Shown here: in pieces, positions 952 to 14,367 of the stretch
Position numbering within the stretch: position 1 is the stretch's first letter
Layout of the letters: every line of letters begins with the position of its first letter
NCBI GenBank assembly: GCA_964364185.1
Contig: CAYIKU010000001.1
Coordinates: forward strand, 19,258 to 53,243
DNA from: an uncultured Candidatus Saccharibacteria bacterium
Lineage (GTDB): Bacteria > Patescibacteriota > Minisyncoccia > Phycocordibacterales > VMEP01
DNA length: 33,986 bases
Reading direction: 5' to 3'
Translations under genes and position numbers: made by a program
Notes under the pieces: generated by a model
Told to the model about the DNA's origin: nothing
The model's input: the letters and a program-made list of their open reading frames with translations, nothing else
The model's database searches: none

Positions 952-2421
952 ATGGCTTCATTAGAAGAACTGCGGAGCGAGCGTTTGAAAAAATTAGAAA
1001 TACTTAAGGGGAGAGAGATGAACGCTTATCCCATTGAGACAGAATGCGACACGACGCTTTTTGAAGCAAGCACTTCATTTCCAAAACTTTCAAAAAAGAA
1101 GAAGGGGATTTCTCTCGTCGGGCGCGTTACTGCGCTTCGCGGGCAAGGAGCACTCGTATTTTTTAATTTTTTTGACGGTACGGGAACTTTTCAAGGCCTT
1201 CTGAAAAAAGACGAAATGGACGAGAAAACATTTTCTCTTTTTGAAAATACGGTTGATATAGGTGATTTTGTAGAAGTTCGCGGAATGCTTTTTATGACAA
1301 AGCGGAAAGAAAAAACAATTCTTGTCCGTGAATGGAAAATGCTTGCTAAAAGTTTGCGCCCCTTACCCGACAAATGGCACGGGCTTCAGGATATTGAAGA
1401 AAGGTTCAGAAAACGCTATCTGGACACATTAATGTCTCCGGAAATAAGGGTTCGGTTTGTCACACGCGCCTCCATCATTGCTTCGCTTCGCGAGTATTTG
1501 AACAAAGAAAATTTTCTTGAAGTTGAGACGCCGATTCTTCAGACTCTACCGGGGGGTGCCCTGGCAGAGCCGTTCAAAACGCACCATCAAGCGCTCGGTA
1601 TGGATTTATATCTTCGTATCGCGCCGGAACTTTATCTGAAAAAACTCTTGGTGGGCGGATTTTCAAAAGTATACGAACTTTCCCGAAACTTCAGAAATGA
1701 AGGCATTGATGTTACTCATAATCCTGAATTTACCATGCTTGAATATTATGAGGCCTACAGCGACGCGACAAAACAAATGGAATTCGCGGAAAAAATGCTT
1801 CGTGCTGTTGTAAAAAAAATATTTCCAAAGGGAATTGCGCAGTACGACGGAAACACGGTTGATTTTTCCAAAAAATTCACCCGTATTACATTTTTTGACC
1901 TCCTAAAACGCTACGCCCTGATTTCGCACCCGGGCGACGCGACACGGCAAGAATTGACGCATAAGGCAAACCAGCTCGCCGTAGAATTGAAACCAACCGA
2001 TTCACTGGAAAAGATAATGGATAACATTTTTAAAAAAGTTTGCCGTCCGCGTTTGATACAGCCGACATTTATAACCGATTACCCCGTGGCATTTTCTCCG
2101 TTCGCCAAAAGAAAAGAAAATGATAAAAATTTTATTGACCGTTTCCAGTTGATAGCTGGCGGAATTGAATTGGTAAACGCCTTCTCCGAATTAAACGATC
2201 CTATTGACCAGCGTGAGCGATACGATGAACAAGAAAAAAGGAGAAGGGGGGGAGAGAAAGATATTTCTCCGTCCGATGAAGAGTATATTGAGGCAATGGA
2301 ATACGGTATGCCTCCAGCTGGCGGTGTCGGCATGGGAGTTGACCGGCTAGTAATGCTTCTTACTGATTCAAAAAATATAAAAGAAGTTATTTTGTTCCCG
2401 ACAATGAAGCCGAGGGATTAA
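952..2421 (+). CDS. lysS: Lysine--tRNA ligase (class II)
   Basis: 489 aa. N-terminal OB-fold region, SRNFRNEGID (motif 2 region), GGVGMGVDRLVMLL (motif 3 region). Overall LysRS class II layout. Confidence 0.93.
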   Translation: MASLEELRSERLKKLEILKGREMNAYPIETECDTTLFEASTSFPKLSKKKKGISLVGRVTALRGQGALVFFNFFDGTGTFQGLLKKDEMDEKTFSLFENTVDIGDFVEVRGMLFMTKRKEKTILVREWKMLAKSLRPLPDKWHGLQDIEERFRKRYLDTLMSPEIRVRFVTRASIIASLREYLNKENFLEVETPILQTLPGGALAEPFKTHHQALGMDLYLRIAPELYLKKLLVGGFSKVYELSRNFRNEGIDVTHNPEFTMLEYYEAYSDATKQMEFAEKMLRAVVKKIFPKGIAQYDGNTVDFSKKFTRITFFDLLKRYALISHPGDATRQELTHKANQLAVELKPTDSLEKIMDNIFKKVCRPRLIQPTFITDYPVAFSPFAKRKENDKNFIDRFQLIAGGIELVNAFSELNDPIDQRERYDEQEKRRRGGEKDISPSDEEYIEAMEYGMPPAGGVGMGVDRLVMLLTDSKNIKEVILFPTMKPRD

Positions 2422-2600
2422 ACAGGAATTAGCTGATAGGAGTTAGGAAGATAGCTTTAAAAAATCTAGAAATATTCTTATTATCCTATTCGCACGAATG
2501 GTACCATAAGGAATAGTTTGAAAAATAAAAAAGCCACATATCAGTTCTTTAACGTGGCTTTAAGGGTTGGTTGATAGAAAATAGAAAATTAGATAAATAA

Positions 2601-8233: not shown

Positions 8234-10564
8234 ATGAAAAAATCTCCCGCACATACGTCGGTTCTTACTATGATTAAAAAGAGGGACGGTTCTAAGGTTA
8301 CTTTTGATGTAAATAAAATTGTCCGCGCCATAGAGAAGGCGATGTACGCAGTAAAAGAATTTAAGAGCGGCGCGCCGGAAAAAATAGCGGAAGATATCTC
8401 AAAAAAGTTGCTTGCGCAAAAAGAAAATGATTCTTTGTTTGTTCCGACAGTCGAAGGAGTACAGGACTTAGTGGAATCGGGGCTCATGCTTCATAAATTT
8501 CCGAGGACAGCCAAAGCGTATATCCTTTATCGAGCCGAACACGCAAAAAAACGAGAGGAGCGCGGTGATATTCCTGAACATGTGCGCGCGCTTGTTGCCG
8601 AAAGTAAAAAATATTTTGAAGGTAACTCTTTAGGCGAATTCGTTTACCTGCGAACATACGCGCGCTGGATTGAGAAAGATAATAGGCGTGAGACATGGGT
8701 TGAGACCGTTGACCGATATATGTCATTCATGAAAGAAAATGTGGGTGAGAAACTCTCCGAGGAAGAGTACGTAGAATTGCAGGGTGCAATTCTTCAACAA
8801 GAAGTTATGCCGTCAATGCGACTCATGCAATTTGCTGGAGAACCGGCGCGGAGATGTAATACTTGCGCGTACAATTGCTCTTTCATCGCCCCGACGAAAC
8901 TTGAGGACTTCGCTGAAATAATGTATCTCTCAATGCAAGGGTGCGGTATCGGGTTTACGGTTGAAAGTCAGAACATAGAACAGTTGCCGCAAATACAGAA
9001 ACAAACAAAAAAGAAACTGCCGGCGCATACCATCGCGGATGACAAAGAAGGTTGGTGCGACGCTCTTGTTTTAGGATTAAAGACTTGGTATGCCGGCAAA
9101 GATATTGAGTTTAATTTCTCTCTTATCCGTCCTGCCGGCGCGCGACTCAAAGTTATGGGGGGTAAATCATCGGGACCAGAGCTACTTCGCTCGTTGTTAG
9201 AATTTGTGCGCGAGAAAATATTGCGTCGCCAAGGACGACGTTTGCGGAGCATAGACGCTCATGACATCATCTGTAAAATCGGCGAAGCTGTCGTGGCGGG
9301 TGGTGTGCGGCGCACCGCAATGATATCGCTTTCAGACCTTGATGACGCGGAGTTGCGCGACGCGAAAAAAGGCCAATTTTTCTTAACGGAACCGTACCGC
9401 TCGGTTGCCAACAACTCTGCGGTATATGAGGCAAAACCTTCCAATACGGAACTTATGGAGGAGTGGGTGGCTCTCATGAAAAGCAATTCGGGTGAACGCG
9501 GCATTTTTAATCGTGAAGCATTGGGTAAAACTATGCCCAAACGTCGCGCGACATATTTCAAAAAAATTGGCTTTATTGGTGATGACGGCGTCGTACAAGG
9601 TCCGGTCGGAATGAACCCGTGCGGCGAAATTATTTTGCAATCAAAACAATTTTGTAATCTTTCTGAAATTATTGCCCGCGCGGAAGACACGCAAGAAAGT
9701 CTTGTGCGCAAGGCACGGCTCGCCACGCTTCTTGGAACATATCAGTCAATGCTCACAAAATTCAAATACATTTCAAAAGCATGGACAAAACACTGCGAGG
9801 AAGAACGGTTGCTCGGCGTATCGGTAACGGGCCAATGGGACAGCGAGGTCGCGCGCAAACCGGAAACTCTGCGCGCCATGCGCGATACCGCAATAAAAAC
9901 TAACATTTTATATGCAAAACGTTTTGGTATAAAACCGTCAATGTCTGTTACCGCAGTCAAACCTTCAGGAACCGTTTCTCAAACATTCAACTGCTCCTCC
10001 GGCATACATCCGCGCCATTCAAAATATTATATTCGCAGAGTGCGCATCTCCGCGACCGACTCGCTTTTTAAAATGCTTAAAGACCAGGGAGTCCCGCATT
10101 ATCCCGAAGTCGGGCAATCGGAGGAGAACGCGAATACTTTTGTCTTGGAGTTTCCCGTGGAAGCGCCGGGTGGTTCTGTTTTTAAAGACGATTTAACCGC
10201 TCTTGAACAGCTTGAGTATTGGAAAGTAGTGAAGCTCAATTACACCGAGCACAACCCTTCAGCGACAATTTCAGTTGGTGAAGACGAGTGGATAGGCGTC
10301 GTAGATTGGATACAAAAAAATTGGGATATCATAGGAGGGCTTTCATTTCTGCCGCGCTTTGACCATATATATCGTCTCGCCCCGTACGAAACAATAGACA
10401 AAAAAAGATACGATGAACTTGTTGCGAGTTTTCCAAACATAGATTACGCCAAACTTGTCACATACGAACACGCCGATGAAACGGAACAAAGAAAAGAACT
10501 GGCCTGCGTTGGGGGTGTCTGCGACATAGATATTATAGTCCCGATTGAAACCGTAACTTCATAA
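8234..10564 (+). CDS. nrdJ: Adenosylcobalamin-dependent (class II) ribonucleotide reductase with N-terminal ATP-cone
   Basis: 776 aa. ATP-cone-like N-terminus (VLTMIKKRDGSKVTFDVNKIVRAIEKAM), active-site loop GMNPCGEIILQSKQFCNLSE, C-terminal Cys pair CVGGVC. Single-subunit, with no nrdB-like partner gene nearby. Confidence 0.85.
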   Translation: MKKSPAHTSVLTMIKKRDGSKVTFDVNKIVRAIEKAMYAVKEFKSGAPEKIAEDISKKLLAQKENDSLFVPTVEGVQDLVESGLMLHKFPRTAKAYILYRAEHAKKREERGDIPEHVRALVAESKKYFEGNSLGEFVYLRTYARWIEKDNRRETWVETVDRYMSFMKENVGEKLSEEEYVELQGAILQQEVMPSMRLMQFAGEPARRCNTCAYNCSFIAPTKLEDFAEIMYLSMQGCGIGFTVESQNIEQLPQIQKQTKKKLPAHTIADDKEGWCDALVLGLKTWYAGKDIEFNFSLIRPAGARLKVMGGKSSGPELLRSLLEFVREKILRRQGRRLRSIDAHDIICKIGEAVVAGGVRRTAMISLSDLDDAELRDAKKGQFFLTEPYRSVANNSAVYEAKPSNTELMEEWVALMKSNSGERGIFNREALGKTMPKRRATYFKKIGFIGDDGVVQGPVGMNPCGEIILQSKQFCNLSEIIARAEDTQESLVRKARLATLLGTYQSMLTKFKYISKAWTKHCEEERLLGVSVTGQWDSEVARKPETLRAMRDTAIKTNILYAKRFGIKPSMSVTAVKPSGTVSQTFNCSSGIHPRHSKYYIRRVRISATDSLFKMLKDQGVPHYPEVGQSEENANTFVLEFPVEAPGGSVFKDDLTALEQLEYWKVVKLNYTEHNPSATISVGEDEWIGVVDWIQKNWDIIGGLSFLPRFDHIYRLAPYETIDKKRYDELVASFPNIDYAKLVTYEHADETEQRKELACVGGVCDIDIIVPIETVTS

Positions 10565-10568
10565 TAAT

Positions 10569-11102
10569 GTGCTTTATACTCGCAAGGGAGACAGTGGAAT
10601 ATCCGGGCTTTTAGGAACAAGGGGGTGTTTTCCAAAAAACAGCCCTATTTATGACGCACTCGGCACTCTTGATGAGCTAAACTCTCTTCTTGGTGTTTGT
10701 CGGGCGTTTTCTTCGCGCGAAAAAAGGAAGATTGATGTGGCAAAGGAAATTAAAAATATTCAGGAATGTCTTTTTATTGTCCAGGCGGAACTTGCGGGGT
10801 CATCAAAATCAATTTTACAAACGCACATAGAAGAATTGGAACGCGCTATAGGAGAAATTGAAGCTTTGATTGAAAATCCGCACGCATTTGTGATTCCCGG
10901 TTCCAATAAGCTCTCGGCGCTGTTCGATTACGCCAGGTCTGTGTCGCGCAGAGCCGAACGCAGTGTTTTAGGTGAACAGGCATCACAAAAAGTATCTTCC
11001 CAAACTCGTGTCTATCTCAACCGTCTTTCAAGTTTGTTGTATGCACTTGCGCGTTATTCTGCGGTTCTTGGCGGAGTAAAAGAATCATCACCTTCATATT
11101 AA
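10569..11102 (+). CDS. ATP:cob(I)alamin adenosyltransferase, PduO type
   Basis: 177 aa, GTG start. N-terminus LYTRKGDSGISGL and DALGTLDELNSLLG match the PduO/MMAB-type adenosyltransferase signature. Confidence 0.8.
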   Translation: MLYTRKGDSGISGLLGTRGCFPKNSPIYDALGTLDELNSLLGVCRAFSSREKRKIDVAKEIKNIQECLFIVQAELAGSSKSILQTHIEELERAIGEIEALIENPHAFVIPGSNKLSALFDYARSVSRRAERSVLGEQASQKVSSQTRVYLNRLSSLLYALARYSAVLGGVKESSPSY

Positions 11103-11124
11103 TAATAATTAAATAATTAAAAAC

Positions 11125-11559
11125 ATGAATTCAAAACAAAATTGGCAAATTGTCGGAATAGGATTATTGGTAATTGCTCTTGCGATAGGGATATTTATAT
11201 ATACAGGCAAAACAATACCGTCTGAAAATAATATAAATCAAGAAGTCACGCAAACAAGCAATATCTCTCTCACAATCGAAGGTTTATATTCAAGTAAATC
11301 CATTTCAATATCTGAAAAAGAAACAGTTCTTAAAATACTTCAAACTCTCAATTCCGAAAATCCGCAACTTAAACTTTCCACCAAAGAGTATTCGGGGCTC
11401 GGCGTATTAGTTGAAAGTATGAATGGAAACAAAAACGGCACGGATGATAAATACTGGCAGTACAAAGTAAACGCCGTTATGCCTCAAATTGGTGCGGATA
11501 AATTAGAATTAAAAAACGGCGACTCGGTTGAATGGTATTTCAGCAAGTCAGAATTCTAA
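11125..11559 (+). CDS. Membrane-anchored DUF4430-like (transcobalamin-like) protein
   Basis: 144 aa. N-terminal TM, C-terminal YWQYKVNAVMPQIGADKLELKNGDSVEWYF resembling the DUF4430 signature often found next to B12 uptake genes. Confidence 0.55.
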   Translation: MNSKQNWQIVGIGLLVIALAIGIFIYTGKTIPSENNINQEVTQTSNISLTIEGLYSSKSISISEKETVLKILQTLNSENPQLKLSTKEYSGLGVLVESMNGNKNGTDDKYWQYKVNAVMPQIGADKLELKNGDSVEWYFSKSEF

Positions 11560-11565
11560 AACACA

Positions 11566-12099
11566 GTGAACAGAAACGCATTCTTTTTTGTCGCTATCAT
11601 ACTTATTTTATTCGGCGTAATGGTGCGCTTGTTTCCACATCTTCCTAATGCAACCCCTATAACCGCAATTGCTTTTGCGAGCAGTATTTATCTCGGTAAA
11701 CGGTGGTCAATTATTCTTCCCATATTTACACTTTTTCTTTCGGATATATTTATCGGTTTTTATGATTGGAAGATAATGTTAAGTGTTTACAGCTCTTTTG
11801 CTCTTATTGGATGTTTAAGCTGGGTGAGCAGAAAATACGGCGGAATTTTTCCTGTTTTTCTTTCGGTTATTGGGTCGGCACTTCTTTTCTTCTTCATTAC
11901 CAATGGCGCGGTGTGGCTTTTTTCTCCATGGTACGAAAAAAGCATTTCCGGACTTTTGTATTCTTATGAACTCGGCATTCCGTTTTTCCGAAATATGTTG
12001 ATGGGGGATATTATTTATACCGCGCTTCTTTTGGGAGTGTTTGAATTTGTAAGAATGGGGGTTAGGAGAATGGGAGCGGGGATTAAGATTGGGCAGTAG
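11566..12099 (+). CDS. Polytopic membrane protein, possibly a solitary ECF-S-component-like vitamin (cobalamin?) transporter
   Basis: 177 aa, GTG start, about 5-6 hydrophobic helices, PNATPITAIAFAS motif. The functional guess rests only on context with the adenosyltransferase and DUF4430 genes. Confidence 0.4.
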   Translation: MNRNAFFFVAIILILFGVMVRLFPHLPNATPITAIAFASSIYLGKRWSIILPIFTLFLSDIFIGFYDWKIMLSVYSSFALIGCLSWVSRKYGGIFPVFLSVIGSALLFFFITNGAVWLFSPWYEKSISGLLYSYELGIPFFRNMLMGDIIYTALLLGVFEFVRMGVRRMGAGIKIGQ

Positions 12100-12147
12100 G
12101 GGATACTATAATTGTTAAAAAAAATTCTTTCTTTACTAAAATAAATA

Positions 12148-12156
12148 TGTTATAAT
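12148..12156 (+). promoter_or_regulatory. Extended -10 promoter (TGtTATAAT) candidate for the retron non-coding RNA; a second TATAAT lies at 12175-12180
   Basis: TG at 12148-12149, TATAAT at 12151-12156. No good -35. Confidence 0.35.
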
Positions 12157-12177
12157 ATGAGTATACTTTGGTAATAT

Positions 12178-12439
12178 AATCTTCCCGATTCATCGCTCAA
12201 GGCGATTTCCAAGTTCAGGAACTAAACCTGCCCCACCGGAAAAGATATTGTTGTGAAATAATTCATTTCAATATCAATGAAAGTGCTTATCGTGGAATGA
12301 TATATCAGGCTACGCTTGATAATTCATAAAACGAATAGTATAACCGTATGACAGTTAATTCTTATATAGTAATAATCTGACTTAAGCTGAAGCAATTTAG
12401 CTTAAAAGGTCGATTATCAAAGTAATTTTCGGGAAGGTT
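12178..12439 (+). ncRNA. Candidate retron msr-msd non-coding RNA
   Basis: Flanking inverted repeat AATCTTCCCGA (12178-12188) / TCGGGAAGGTT (12429-12439): 8 perfect bp, 10 of 11 overall. Internal hairpins at 12192-12206, 12216-12230, 12262-12281, 12303-12321 and a 16-bp bulged hairpin at 12372-12417. Lies directly upstream of a retron-type RT. Confidence 0.45.
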
Positions 12440-12474
12440 CGCGGTTCACCGCCGGCTTTTTCGAGCAAAATTTT

Positions 12475-12678
12475 ATGAAAGATGTAAATAAGAGGCTTGG
12501 AGCTCTTGCGAGTTTCGTTAAAAGTCTCTCGGTTATTCTTTCTGGAGTTTTTTCTTTAATTCCGTGGGTCAAGAAATTGTTCTACCTGATTAAGGAATTA
12601 CTTCAGCATTACCTTTGGACACATCGCCTTGCAAAACGGGGCGATGTTTTGTTTTATGAAGAAAATTATTACACATAA
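12475..12678 (+). CDS. Small (67 aa) predicted single-pass membrane protein overlapping the RT start
   Basis: ATG ORF. Hydrophobic stretch LGALASFVKSLSVILSGVFSLIPWV followed by a basic/amphipathic tail. Its stop overlaps the RT ATG at 12656 by 23 nt. No clear SD, so coding status is uncertain. Confidence 0.35.
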   Translation: MKDVNKRLGALASFVKSLSVILSGVFSLIPWVKKLFYLIKELLQHYLWTHRLAKRGDVLFYEENYYT

Positions 12679-13573
12679 AAATTTACATAGAGAGATAAAC
12701 ACGATAGACGATTTATGTCGCATGCTTTCTCTTGAAAAATATTTTTTGCAAAAACATATCCGTCTTTGTCCTTTGCTATATATAGAAATACCGCTAAAAA
12801 AGAAAGATGGCACGCCTAGACCAATTCGAGCGCCAAAAGATAAGTTAAAAATTATACAAAGAGCTATTTTAAAAAATATACTTTCAGGTATAAAGCTACC
12901 CTCATGCTGTTATGGTTTTTCAAAAAATAAATCCATTATTGAAAACGCGAAAGTTCATTCAAAAAATGATTTTTTACTAAATCTTGATATACAAGATTTT
13001 TTTCCAAGCGTGCATTATAAAAAGGTTCAACAAATTTTCTTAGATATAGGATTAAGTGAAGAAATTGCCATTATTCTTTGCGGTTTAACTACTTACGAGT
13101 ATAGGTTGCCCCAAGGAGCGCCGACAAGCCCTTTTCTTGCCAGTTTTGCTCTTTCAAACCTTGATTATAGACTTATGCGATTAGCAAAATCTAACTACTT
13201 AACTTATACAAGATATTTTGATGATATTTCTTTTTCAGGGAACAAAAGAGTGGTTGTGCTAGAAAAAGACATTATGAAAATTATTAAGGAAGAGGGATAT
13301 ACAGTTAAAATTAGCAAAAGAAAGCTTTTTACAAAGAATGAAGCAAAAGAAGTAAATGGTGTTTTAATCACAAACAAGAAATTATCACTTAGAAATACCG
13401 ATGAATTATTTAATTATGTAAGTGATATTAACAAGTATGGTTTATCTAAATTACAAACTGACAACCTAGAAAAAGAGAGGCAATCACTCAAAGGGAAAAT
13501 TGCCTTTTTGAAACAAGTTGATCAAGAACAATCAGATAAAATAGAAGCAATTTTTACTTCTATTTTGTGGTAA
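12656..13573 (+). CDS. Retron-type reverse transcriptase
   Basis: RPIRAPKDKLKIIQRAILKNIL, ENAKVH (NAxxH), LNLDIQDFFPS, LPQGAPTSPFLASFALSNLDYRL, YTRYFDDISFS (YxDD box), EVNGVLIT (position of the retron VTG). Colinear with retron Ec86 RT as I remember it. The ORF is open from TTG 12629, and alternative ATGs lie at 12644 and 12656. Confidence 0.85.
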   Translation: MKKIITHKNLHREINTIDDLCRMLSLEKYFLQKHIRLCPLLYIEIPLKKKDGTPRPIRAPKDKLKIIQRAILKNILSGIKLPSCCYGFSKNKSIIENAKVHSKNDFLLNLDIQDFFPSVHYKKVQQIFLDIGLSEEIAIILCGLTTYEYRLPQGAPTSPFLASFALSNLDYRLMRLAKSNYLTYTRYFDDISFSGNKRVVVLEKDIMKIIKEEGYTVKISKRKLFTKNEAKEVNGVLITNKKLSLRNTDELFNYVSDINKYGLSKLQTDNLEKERQSLKGKIAFLKQVDQEQSDKIEAIFTSILW

Positions 13574-13620
13574 TTCTAAACTAATTATCTAATTTTTATA
13601 CAGCTTGAATTAAAAGAAAA

Positions 13621-13647
13621 CTATGATAATAAAATTTATTATCATAG
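13621..13647. terminator. Bidirectional hairpin between the convergent RT gene and the 64-aa gene
   Basis: Stem CTATGATAAT (13621-13630) / ATTATCATAG (13638-13647), with A/T-rich flanks on both sides. Confidence 0.5.
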
Positions 13648-13683
13648 TCTAGTTTTAATAGCAAGGGTTATTTATATAGAAGG

Positions 13684-13878
13684 TTATTTATCCCAGGGAA
13701 TATTGATTTTCTGTCCACCAGGAATTTCAACCGTTGTATGCCCATTATTAATATTACCATTTTGATCCACTTGAAATGTGTCATGCACTCCACCACCCAT
13801 AGGGGGAGTGATACCATTGATGGGTTGAATCCCGTATCCATTACTGGTAGTTTTAAATGAAGAGTTATCGTTGCTCAC
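13684..13878 (-). CDS. Small Gly/Asn-rich hypothetical protein (64 aa)
   Basis: GTG start at 13878-13876 with GAGGA 7 nt upstream (RC of 13886-13890) and a consensus promoter upstream. Sequence MSNDNSSFKTTSNGYGIQPINGITPPMGGGVHDTFQVDQNGNINNGHTTVEIPGGQKINIPWDK has no TM segment or signal peptide. Confidence 0.6.
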   Translation of the reverse strand: MSNDNSSFKTTSNGYGIQPINGITPPMGGGVHDTFQVDQNGNINNGHTTVEIPGGQKINIPWDK

Positions 13879-13919
13879 AGTATTTTCCTCGCAAAAAAGG
13901 ATAACATTATCCAGTGAGA

Positions 13920-13947
13920 ATTATAGTTTGTTGGTGTTTAAAGTCAA
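13920..13947 (-). promoter_or_regulatory. Consensus sigma70 promoter (TTGACT-16 nt-TATAAT) for the 64-aa gene, followed by a palindrome
   Basis: Read on the minus strand, the -35 TTGACT is at 13947-13942 and the -10 TATAAT at 13925-13920. The palindrome GGATAAnnTTATCC at 13899-13912 lies between the -10 and the RBS. Confidence 0.6.
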
Positions 13948-14153: not shown

Positions 14154-14163
14154 ACATAATTTT

Positions 14164-14235
14164 TGACCCCACCGGGAATCGAACCCGAATTTGAAGCTTG
14201 AGAAGCTTCCGTCCTAACCGTTAGACGATGGGGCC
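14164..14235 (-). tRNA. tRNA-Glu (anticodon CUC)
   Basis: Minus strand GGCCCCATCGTCTAACGGTTAGGACGGAAGCTTCTCAAGCTTCAAATTCGGGTTCGATTCCCGGTGGGGTCA. 7-bp acceptor stem (one G-U), D arm GTCT/GGAC, anticodon stem GAAGC/GCTTC with loop TTCTCAA, T arm with GGTTCGATTCC. No encoded CCA. Confidence 0.9.
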
Positions 14236-14367
14236 ATATTTTTTTAAGATATCATTTTTTGAAAAATACATACATTCCTAACTGTTACCTGTCTGCCGAC
14301 AGGCAGGGACAATGGGGGCATGTTTACAATTTTCAATTTACAATAAAAAACGCTTTAAAACAAACTT

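Follow-up and report, generated by a model that had tools for sequence, protein, structure and literature searches.

What does a retron-type reverse transcriptase (RT) work with when neither the protein itself nor its neighbours carry a known effector domain? Retrons are classified by their effectors, and roughly one in three retron RTs seems to have none. The question is raised by a locus of ~1.45 kb (12148-13573: promoter, RNA, small open reading frame (ORF) and RT) in the stretch of DNA analysed here, 33,986 nucleotides from an uncultured Candidatus Saccharibacteria bacterium (contig CAYIKU010000001.1; called the window for simplicity). Identical proteins are on record for a Patescibacteria group bacterium (locus tags AAB488_00110 and AAB488_00120), and the source of these records is the Hainich aquifer, well H43. 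A first-pass annotation made from the sequence had offered two options for the locus, a minimal retron with a peptide effector or an orphan, i.e. effector-less, retron. Our analysis supports this pair of options, and the first of them is the better supported, because a 67-aa ORF between RNA and RT keeps its position, length, charge and hydrophobicity among relatives and shows purifying selection. We read the locus, with about an even chance of being right, as a minimal tripartite retron of a Patescibacteria-specific lineage whose effector is a small membrane-active peptide. Such a cassette may serve as a minimal phage-defence unit.

A retron-type reverse transcriptase

The translation of the RT gene was read against the motifs listed in the first-pass annotation, and all of them were found in the order given there: RPIRAPKDKLKIIQRAILKNIL, ENAKVH (NAxxH), LNLDIQDFFPS, LPQGAPTSPFLASF, YTRYFDDISFS (YFDD) and VNG at the VTG position. 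Retron RTs are defined by region X (NAxxH) and region Y (VTG, in which the G is most conserved) (PMC7736814), represented here by ENAKVH and VNG. Pfam returned RVT_1 alone (E 7.5e-20), in agreement with the description of the protein as an RT of about 305 aa without fused domain. The assignment to the retron RTs was checked by profile comparison, and it held: the 25 best of 56 matches to PADLOC models were to retron RT models without exception, with RT_III-A (3.2e-74) and RT_II-A (2.1e-71) at the top, RT_VI at 1e-64 and RT_Ec107-like at 1.1e-54. The best NCBIfam match was retron_St85_RT (214 bits, slightly below the cut-off of 235 bits), and the closest solved structure was that of the Ec86 retron RT (1.5e-34).

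About 300 homologues of ~305 aa each were retrieved, mostly labelled Patescibacteria, Paceibacterota, Nomurabacteria or Parcubacteria, and RT_III-A was the best PADLOC model in all 33 clade members sampled. Across the relatives NAxxH and YFDD are kept, region Y reads ITG or VTG with a nearly invariant G, and the ratio of non-synonymous to synonymous divergence (dN/dS, omega) is ~0.12. In short, this is an intact RT of the retron type, on which purifying selection acts strongly. Outside the clade the nearest RTs (31-38% identity) come from Lachnospiraceae, Paenibacillus, Prevotella, Streptococcus and an unclassified gut metagenome-assembled genome. All of these are preceded by PRTase_III-A genes (loci L008, L013, L016, L024 and L028), followed in L016 by a WH_III-A gene. 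Because the nearest outside RTs belong to type III-A loci and RT_III-A is the best model clade-wide, the clade is placed, on sequence grounds, with the type III-A/Ec86 part of the retron tree, which corresponds to clade 9 (PMC7736814).

A cassette of fixed order in changing surroundings

DNA was compared for ~25 related RT loci (34-86% RT identity), together with flanks of up to 6 kb on either side. Approximately 20 Patescibacteria loci with RT identities of 42-86% share a common cassette, whose elements follow one another in a fixed order: an extended -10 box, an RNA of ~230-360 nt, the small ORF, a GC hairpin with a U-run, and the RT (Table 1). The box (TGnTATAAT/TATACT) occupies the same position in every aligned relative, and its sequence suggests that TGtTATAAT acts as a promoter in the window.

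What surrounds the cassette is unrelated between loci. No counterparts of the window's flanking genes were detected in the related RT loci by tblastn, and clustering of all ORFs of at least 70 aa within 3.5 kb in 23 loci gave no recurrent partner. The largest neighbour cluster, the only family present in more than two loci, comprises three independent loci; it consists of an unannotated protein of ~250 aa with a weakly SoFic-like C-terminus (E ~1e-5), encoded on the strand opposite to the cassette. PADLOC found no known effectors among the immediate neighbours of the clade loci, and a PRTase-like or winged-helix gene beside the RT is absent from the window and from all clade loci. Only the RT, the RNA and the small ORF stay together as the genomic context changes. 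The claim that no known effector domain is fused or adjacent was therefore upheld for the window and extends to its relatives (Pfam, PADLOC and neighbour clustering). The first-pass annotation had also named an outcome that would speak against its reading, namely relatives carrying a large effector that was lost here. Since no neighbour of at least 70 aa recurs around the cassette and no known effector occurs among the immediate neighbours, this is not what the relatives look like.

A structured RNA with covarying helices

Upstream of the RT, ~375 nt of DNA had been called hairpin-rich. This exceeds chance, because the region 12160-12470 folds far better than shuffled sequences (minimum free energy (MFE) -90 kcal/mol vs. 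-61 +/- 4.8 kcal/mol; z = -6.06; 0 of 100 shuffles as stable). Helix pairing and compensatory changes were scored on an alignment of 19 sequences. The 5' and 3' conserved domains are connected by two long-range helices, A.A' (86.8% of cells paired, 7 of 10 pairs compensatory) and B.B' (89.4% paired, 7 of 11 pairs compensatory). Taken jointly with hairpins 1 and 2 of the 5' domain, these helices are 91% paired as compared to 80.8% after shuffling (0 of 500 shuffles reached this value), with compensatory changes in 20 of 30 pairs; controls with slid partners were 33-57% paired. An alignment-free test for ungapped helices recovered A.A' and B.B' as the two best 5'/3' helices, in crossing order, in 17 of the 19 loci, and the mean score of cognate helices was 45.8 vs. 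31.5 for non-cognate helices between subclades and 28.6 for shuffled ones. The G.U pairs of the long-range helices fit the plus strand only.

Since the arms are ordered 5'-A-B...A'-B'-3', A.A' and B.B' cross; the helices are 11-12 bp long and the linkers measure 2 nt and 4-6 nt. Because of this geometry, A.A' and B.B' are unlikely to coexist as a classical pseudoknot and probably represent alternative states. B' can also pair with arm C, 10 nt before the ATG of the small ORF; B'.C is the pairing of the MFE structure and is 90.9% paired in the alignment, with mainly wobble changes and two compensatory pairs only. Between the conserved domains, the centre of the RNA varies in length from 63 to 196 nt among relatives and cannot be aligned between subclades, and it still folds into one or two hairpins (z mostly -2 to -4). 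This centre is the putative template for reverse transcription. Overall the RNA is conserved; its helices covary, and its hairpin centre is hypervariable.

Its layout resembles retron msr-msd RNAs: A.A' closes the RNA as the closing repeat does, two short covarying hairpins stand for those of the msr, and the variable hairpin centre for the fast-evolving long hairpin of the msd (PMC7736814). Unlike known retrons, it has an extra crossing helix (B.B'), the B'.C alternative and no fixed branching G. Among the aligned relatives no G is invariant in the 5' domain and none stands consistently beside A or B, so that a canonical branching G cannot be placed; the only largely conserved G lies on the 3' strand before A'. 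No Rfam family matched the upstream RNA at gathering or E-value thresholds. A covariance model of the 5' domain was run on 98 sources, among them type III-A loci and, from Patescibacteria-type samples, other RT loci, and matched only the 19 loci from which it had been built. As these matches are the training loci only, the model delimits the family and adds no independent members to it.

Three further candidates for RNA features were set aside. The complementarity of 12323-12335 to the RT start was dismissed as chance, being not kept in relatives, and that between 12386-12397 and 12596-12607, found in the closest subclade only, was not used. An msd inside the small-ORF region, considered because the ncRNA directly precedes the RT in Eco11, was rejected since the ORF is protein-constrained and conserved flanking inverted repeats are missing. 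One Ryanbacteria locus (L007, 5730-6801; RT 45% identical) has a 63-aa hydrophobic ORF, the pre-RT hairpin and the 3' RNA domain (GGTCG, A' and B'), with no room for the 5' domain and no match to the model; a PCMT gene adjoins, as in the window. The RNA of this locus may be truncated or degenerate.

A conserved small gene between RNA and RT

The 67-aa ORF that had been noticed between the RNA region and the RT exists, and it is a genuine conserved protein-coding gene under purifying selection. Throughout the 20 full-cassette loci its start lies 172-209 nt ahead of the RT ATG and its end no more than ~45 nt from it, and its stop often forms an ATGA overlap with the RT start. The frame is open in 22 of 22 loci examined, at a chance of ~0.026 per locus for 55 open codons. 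Substitutions are most frequent at third codon positions (0.40 vs. 0.29 and 0.22), and pairwise dN/dS is 0.1-0.54 with a median of ~0.33. Searches with tblastn showed that all close loci carry the ORF; it is also present in distant ones in which gene callers had missed it. Callers usually skip it or predict a spurious ORF on the minus strand; a profile search among 5.8 billion proteins accordingly returned only 12 called members, all 'hypothetical'.

Peptide identity between subclades is only ~20-30%, and across loci the length ranges from 48 to 100 aa, the net charge from +2 to +9 and the maximal 19-residue Kyte-Doolittle hydrophobicity (KD19) from 1.56 to 2.73. What is kept is a pattern: an N-terminal amphipathic part, the motif [IV][IL]LKRF or VILSGV, a hydrophobic stretch and a basic residue, together with conserved Leu and Trp in heptad-like positions. 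AlphaFold2 predicted one long helix with a mean predicted local distance difference test (pLDDT) score of 74. Past residue ~52 the tail is not conserved in frame. Neither Pfam, PADLOC, NCBIfam nor PHROG holds a family for the peptide, and the ORF, the only conserved partner of RT and RNA, encodes no known effector domain. RNAalifold predicted a conserved hairpin inside the ORF (12541-12606) in which CTGGAG pairs with CTTCAG; members of the closest subclade show, in addition, complementarity between CTTCAGC and the arm 12386-12392 of the ncRNA hairpin.

A hairpin in front of the RT start

In every related locus a GC-rich hairpin with a U-run stops only a few bases short of the RT ATG, and this includes a subclade with 34% RT identity in which the upstream ORF is non-hydrophobic. 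The stem sequences are wholly different between loci yet complementary. Where the RT start was set correctly, predicted stabilities were -11.7 to -24.2 kcal/mol; over all 23 rows the median was -16.4 kcal/mol. Reading the sequence revealed no Shine-Dalgarno sequence for either the small ORF or the RT. Because the hairpin lies within the end of the small ORF and a Shine-Dalgarno sequence is missing at both genes, translation of the ORF should be needed to open the hairpin, which points to attenuation or translational coupling. The 34%-identity subclade is represented by L136 (2795-3058) and L137, in which the hairpin and U-run are kept before the RT start, the upstream ORF is overlapping and encodes 87 non-hydrophobic aa, and the model of the 5' RNA domain has no match. 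Judging from these two loci, the small ORF upstream of the RT may be exchangeable as a module.

Genomic surroundings of the cassette

Up to 4 kb on each side of the cassette in the window consist of housekeeping genes according to domain and family scans of the window's proteins, with a B12-related block directly upstream (8234-12099). Large serine recombinases adjoin the cassette in L129, L131, L125/126 and L133, and restriction-modification or nuclease neighbours are common in relatives (Eco57I-like, EcoRI methylase with GmrSD, Cas4-like PDDEXK nuclease, D12 methylase). A tRNA gene was found 20-600 nt from the cassette in 4 of ~17 independent loci, and in L129 a tRNA cluster is followed by the cassette and then by a convergent large serine recombinase. 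This tRNA/recombinase layout suggests that integrative elements carry the cassette as cargo at their edge, and the recombinase, tRNA and restriction-modification/nuclease surroundings fit mobile defence cargo. A search for att-like direct repeats around the window's cassette and tRNA-Glu gave nothing convincing, and IMG/VR contained no relatives of the RT family. In the closest relative of the window (L088), the gene convergent to the RT (1716-2471, minus strand) encodes a membrane-anchored trypsin-like protease that matches the protease half of PADLOC RT-Protease_XI (2.3e-11), and a syntenic gene is present in L092. The protease is a candidate locus-specific extra effector; it is probably a host gene, since it occurs only in these two syntenic loci.

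The convergent 64-aa gene downstream of the RT exists and has the strong promoter that the first-pass annotation had described; the role of a retron partner considered for it there did not hold up. Its five homologues (50-67% identity) lie on short Patescibacteria-type contigs, and no family matched the protein. An attempt to locate an empty site through identical 64-aa proteins failed, as all the contigs came from the same genome population.

Table 1. Coordinates of the cassette elements and neighbouring features (positions refer to the window unless a locus is named).
Feature	Position	Strand	Description
Extended -10 promoter TGtTATAAT (putative)	12148-12156	+	predicted transcript start ~12161-12164
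5' conserved (msr-like) domain	12164-12230	+	arms A and B, hairpins 1 and 2, then CTAAACCTG
Arm A	12164-12175	+	
Arm B	12178-12188	+	
Hairpin 1	12192-12206	+	98.7% paired, 3/5 pairs compensatory
Hairpin 2	12207-12221	+	100% paired, 3/4 pairs compensatory
Hypervariable central (msd-like) region	12231-12381	+	one short and one long imperfect hairpin
3' conserved domain	12382-12466	+	hairpin 12382-12405, AAGGTCG, arms A' and B', inner hairpin, arm C
Arm A'	12413-12424	+	
Arm B'	12429-12439	+	
Inner small GC hairpin	12441-12452	+	
Arm C	12454-12464	+	
Small ORF (candidate effector)	12475-12678	+	67 aa, cationic (+5), hydrophobic, single long helix (predicted)
GC-rich hairpin (12621-12647) and U-run	12621-12655	+	ends 1 nt before RT ATG, within 3' end of small ORF (terminator scan)
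Retron-type RT	12656-13573	+	305 aa, no fused domain; ORF 12629-13573, conserved ATG 12656
64-aa ORF	13878-13684	-	Gly/Asn/Pro-rich; near-consensus promoter TTGACT-16-TATAAT 13947-13920; GAGGA ribosome-binding site
Upstream flank	8234-12099		class II ribonucleotide reductase with ATP-cone, PduO-type cobalamin adenosyltransferase, DUF4430 protein, DUF6580 membrane protein
Downstream flank	14163-14236 (tRNA)	- (tRNA)	tRNA-Glu(CTC), Mpg glycosylase, PCMT
SoFic-like neighbour	L001 2664-3485; L004 4773-5522; L094 3897-4469	-	0.5-2.5 kb upstream of cassette promoter
tRNA genes near cassette	window 14163-14236; L006 5182-5253; L127 3435-3509; L129 2295-2376	- (window)	

Proposed mechanism and rival explanations

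In the mechanism we propose, a single promoter would drive the structured RNA of ~300 nt, the gene for the ~60-aa cationic hydrophobic helical peptide and the 305-aa RT. The RT would reverse-transcribe the variable centre of the RNA into multicopy single-stranded DNA (msDNA); the RT-msDNA complex would keep the small membrane-active peptide harmless. Two modes of restraint can be envisaged: the complex could bind the basic peptide, or an RNA switch (B.B' or B'.C beside the peptide start codon) could act together with the hairpin that would couple the RT to peptide translation. Phage interference with msDNA or RT would free or over-produce the peptide, which would then damage the membrane and abort infection. 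This logic is that of the type IV retron with its effector of two transmembrane helices, carried out with a peptide of the size of Hok or TisB. Rather unlikely in our view, though worth spelling out, is that the retron RNA itself is a switch, so that the state of msDNA and ncRNA gates the synthesis of both membrane toxin and RT. That idea builds on three features: on steric grounds A.A' and B.B' probably cannot both fully form, B'.C lies by the peptide start, and the RT start lies behind a hairpin that the peptide's translation would open.

Several observations weigh against a retron with a membrane-active peptide effector. The peptide matches no known toxin family, and in the window's subclade its hydrophobic core is short (~15 residues, KD19 = 1.89), which makes membrane insertion uncertain. 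Synonymous divergence of the small ORF is 2-3 times below that of the RT in the same genome pairs (e.g. 0.18 vs. 0.54), so that part of its conservation resides at the RNA level. The RNA deviates from the retron norm as well: its long-range helices cross, where known retrons have a nested a1/a2 pair, and the unpaired branching G expected at the inner a1/a2 end was not found. Moreover, the cassette is flanked in the window by housekeeping genes and not by a defence island.

The main rival, which we regard as possible, if doubtful, is an effector-less retron in which the small ORF is no toxin gene at all. The ORF could be a leader or coupling ORF that governs the level of RT, its translation opening the hairpin ahead of the RT start, or it could encode a small basic accessory protein that binds the RNA or msDNA or anchors the complex; an effector would then act in trans, or the role of the retron would be non-toxic. 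Orphan retrons are documented (PMC7736814), and further points in favour of this rival are the terminator-like hairpin that lies in the end of the ORF directly before the RT ATG in every locus, the frequent ATGA overlaps, the lack of Shine-Dalgarno sequences at both genes, the C-terminal tail that is not conserved in frame, and the constrained synonymous sites with the predicted internal hairpin. However, a pure leader ORF would not keep an amino-acid pattern, and in the small ORF the pattern persists between subclades that can no longer be aligned at the nucleotide level; the net positive charge is kept too, and non-synonymous divergence is comparable to that of the RT. The first-pass annotation had called both of its options unusual. 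This is less true of the orphan option than claimed, because effector-less retrons (the Ec107 branch) have already been described (PMC7736814).

Other explanations fare worse. The closest outside RTs all stand behind PRTase_III-A genes and none such is present here, as would be expected of a non-functional type III-A remnant that has lost its PRTase and winged-helix effector genes, yet we consider decay very unlikely: ~300 homologues are full-length, the RT has a low omega and intact catalytic motifs, RNA and small ORF are conserved and covarying across the clade, and the order of RNA, ORF and RT differs from that of effector, RNA and RT in type III-A3 (PMC12746101). The 64-aa gene is a still less probable partner or effector. 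Its proximity to the RT (110 nt from the RT stop), its near-consensus promoter and GAGGA ribosome-binding site speak in its favour, and since homologues exist it is probably real; but it lies on the opposite strand, tblastn found no homologue within the flanks of the related RTs (up to 6 kb each), and identical copies come from the same genome population only. Probably it encodes a small protein that has no relation to the retron and is perhaps secreted. Finally, weak matches to group II RT/maturase (1.1e-12) and Drt2 (1.1e-6) models could hint at a non-retron RT class (group II intron, diversity-generating retroelement (DGR), UG/Abi/DRT or CRISPR-associated). The retron models are better by 50-60 orders of magnitude, the NAxxH and VTG-position motifs are present, and neither a maturase or intron RNA, nor a template/variable repeat pair, nor cas genes were found, making such a class the least credible of all.

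Comparison with known systems

The cassette fits none of the 13 described retron types, in none of which a single-helix protein of ~60 aa stands between RNA and RT. A search of the available literature for retrons of Patescibacteria, the candidate phyla radiation (CPR) or Parcubacteria, for small transmembrane effectors and for a 'type XIV', including a metagenome-wide survey of 2026, did not turn up a description of this lineage. The nearest system is type III-A (Retron-Eco11, III-A3), with which the cassette shares the best RT model and the nearest outside RTs. Type III-A3 also has two long-range ncRNA arms of ~11-14 bp and an msd made of a short and a long stem-loop (PMC12746101). Type III-A has a PRTase-like effector with or without a winged-helix protein, whereas the cassette has neither; its order is effector, RNA, RT instead of RNA, small ORF, RT. 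The arms are nested in Eco11 and crossing here, where an unpaired branching G after the repeats is missing, and the hosts of the cassette, unlike those of type III-A, are Patescibacteria.

Type IV (Retron-Eco6/Ec48) shares the concept of an RT and ncRNA that guard a membrane-targeting protein without enzymatic domain (PMC7736814). Its effector, however, has a signal peptide and two transmembrane helices, is encoded downstream of or overlapping the RT, and accompanies clade 3 RTs (PMC7736814), while the cassette encodes one helix of ~60 aa upstream of a type III-A-like RT and so falls outside type IV. PADLOC detected no sequence similarity between the small-ORF peptide and the type IV effector. 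Orphan retrons, which make up most of the Retron-Eco5/Ec107 branch, likewise combine RT and ncRNA without a recognisable effector domain nearby; here, in contrast, a small protein gene is strictly conserved between RNA and RT, and the RT_Ec107-like model scores far below RT_III-A. Type VI, whose RT_VI model scores well, also has a small unannotated protein in the retron operon. It includes a Cro/C1-type helix-turn-helix protein, absent from the cassette, and soluble accessory proteins of 75-79 aa that form three-helix bundles, unlike the single hydrophobic helix predicted for the small-ORF peptide.

Outside the retrons, type I toxins of the Hok, TisB and Fst-like kind are small cationic hydrophobic helical peptides whose start lies near alternative RNA pairings. 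By analogy, the small-ORF peptide resembles them in being cationic, hydrophobic and, by prediction, helical, with its start near alternative pairings. The likeness would be one of function only: the sequences are not similar, and the small ORF forms part of a retron operon. A promoter scan, the only search made for an antisense RNA, gave no sign of one at the small ORF.

Implications

At ~1.45 kb, the cassette would be among the smallest complete retron units and of interest for producing or editing DNA with retrons. That two long helices cross and no branching G is fixed raises the question of how retron RTs recognise their RNA and prime on it. If the RNA-switch idea were true, this would be the smallest known tripartite retron, one that has riboregulation built in, like that of type I toxin-antitoxin systems, and primes in a non-canonical way, without a fixed branching G.

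Patescibacteria have reduced genomes that are thought to carry few defence systems, and the cassette would add one to their repertoire. Most RTs of Patescibacteria are DGRs according to one review (PMC8632793). For the retron family at large, the finding is that a lineage of orphan appearance has a conserved micro-ORF which gene callers tend to overlook; for this reason, other orphan retrons may hide peptide effectors as well.

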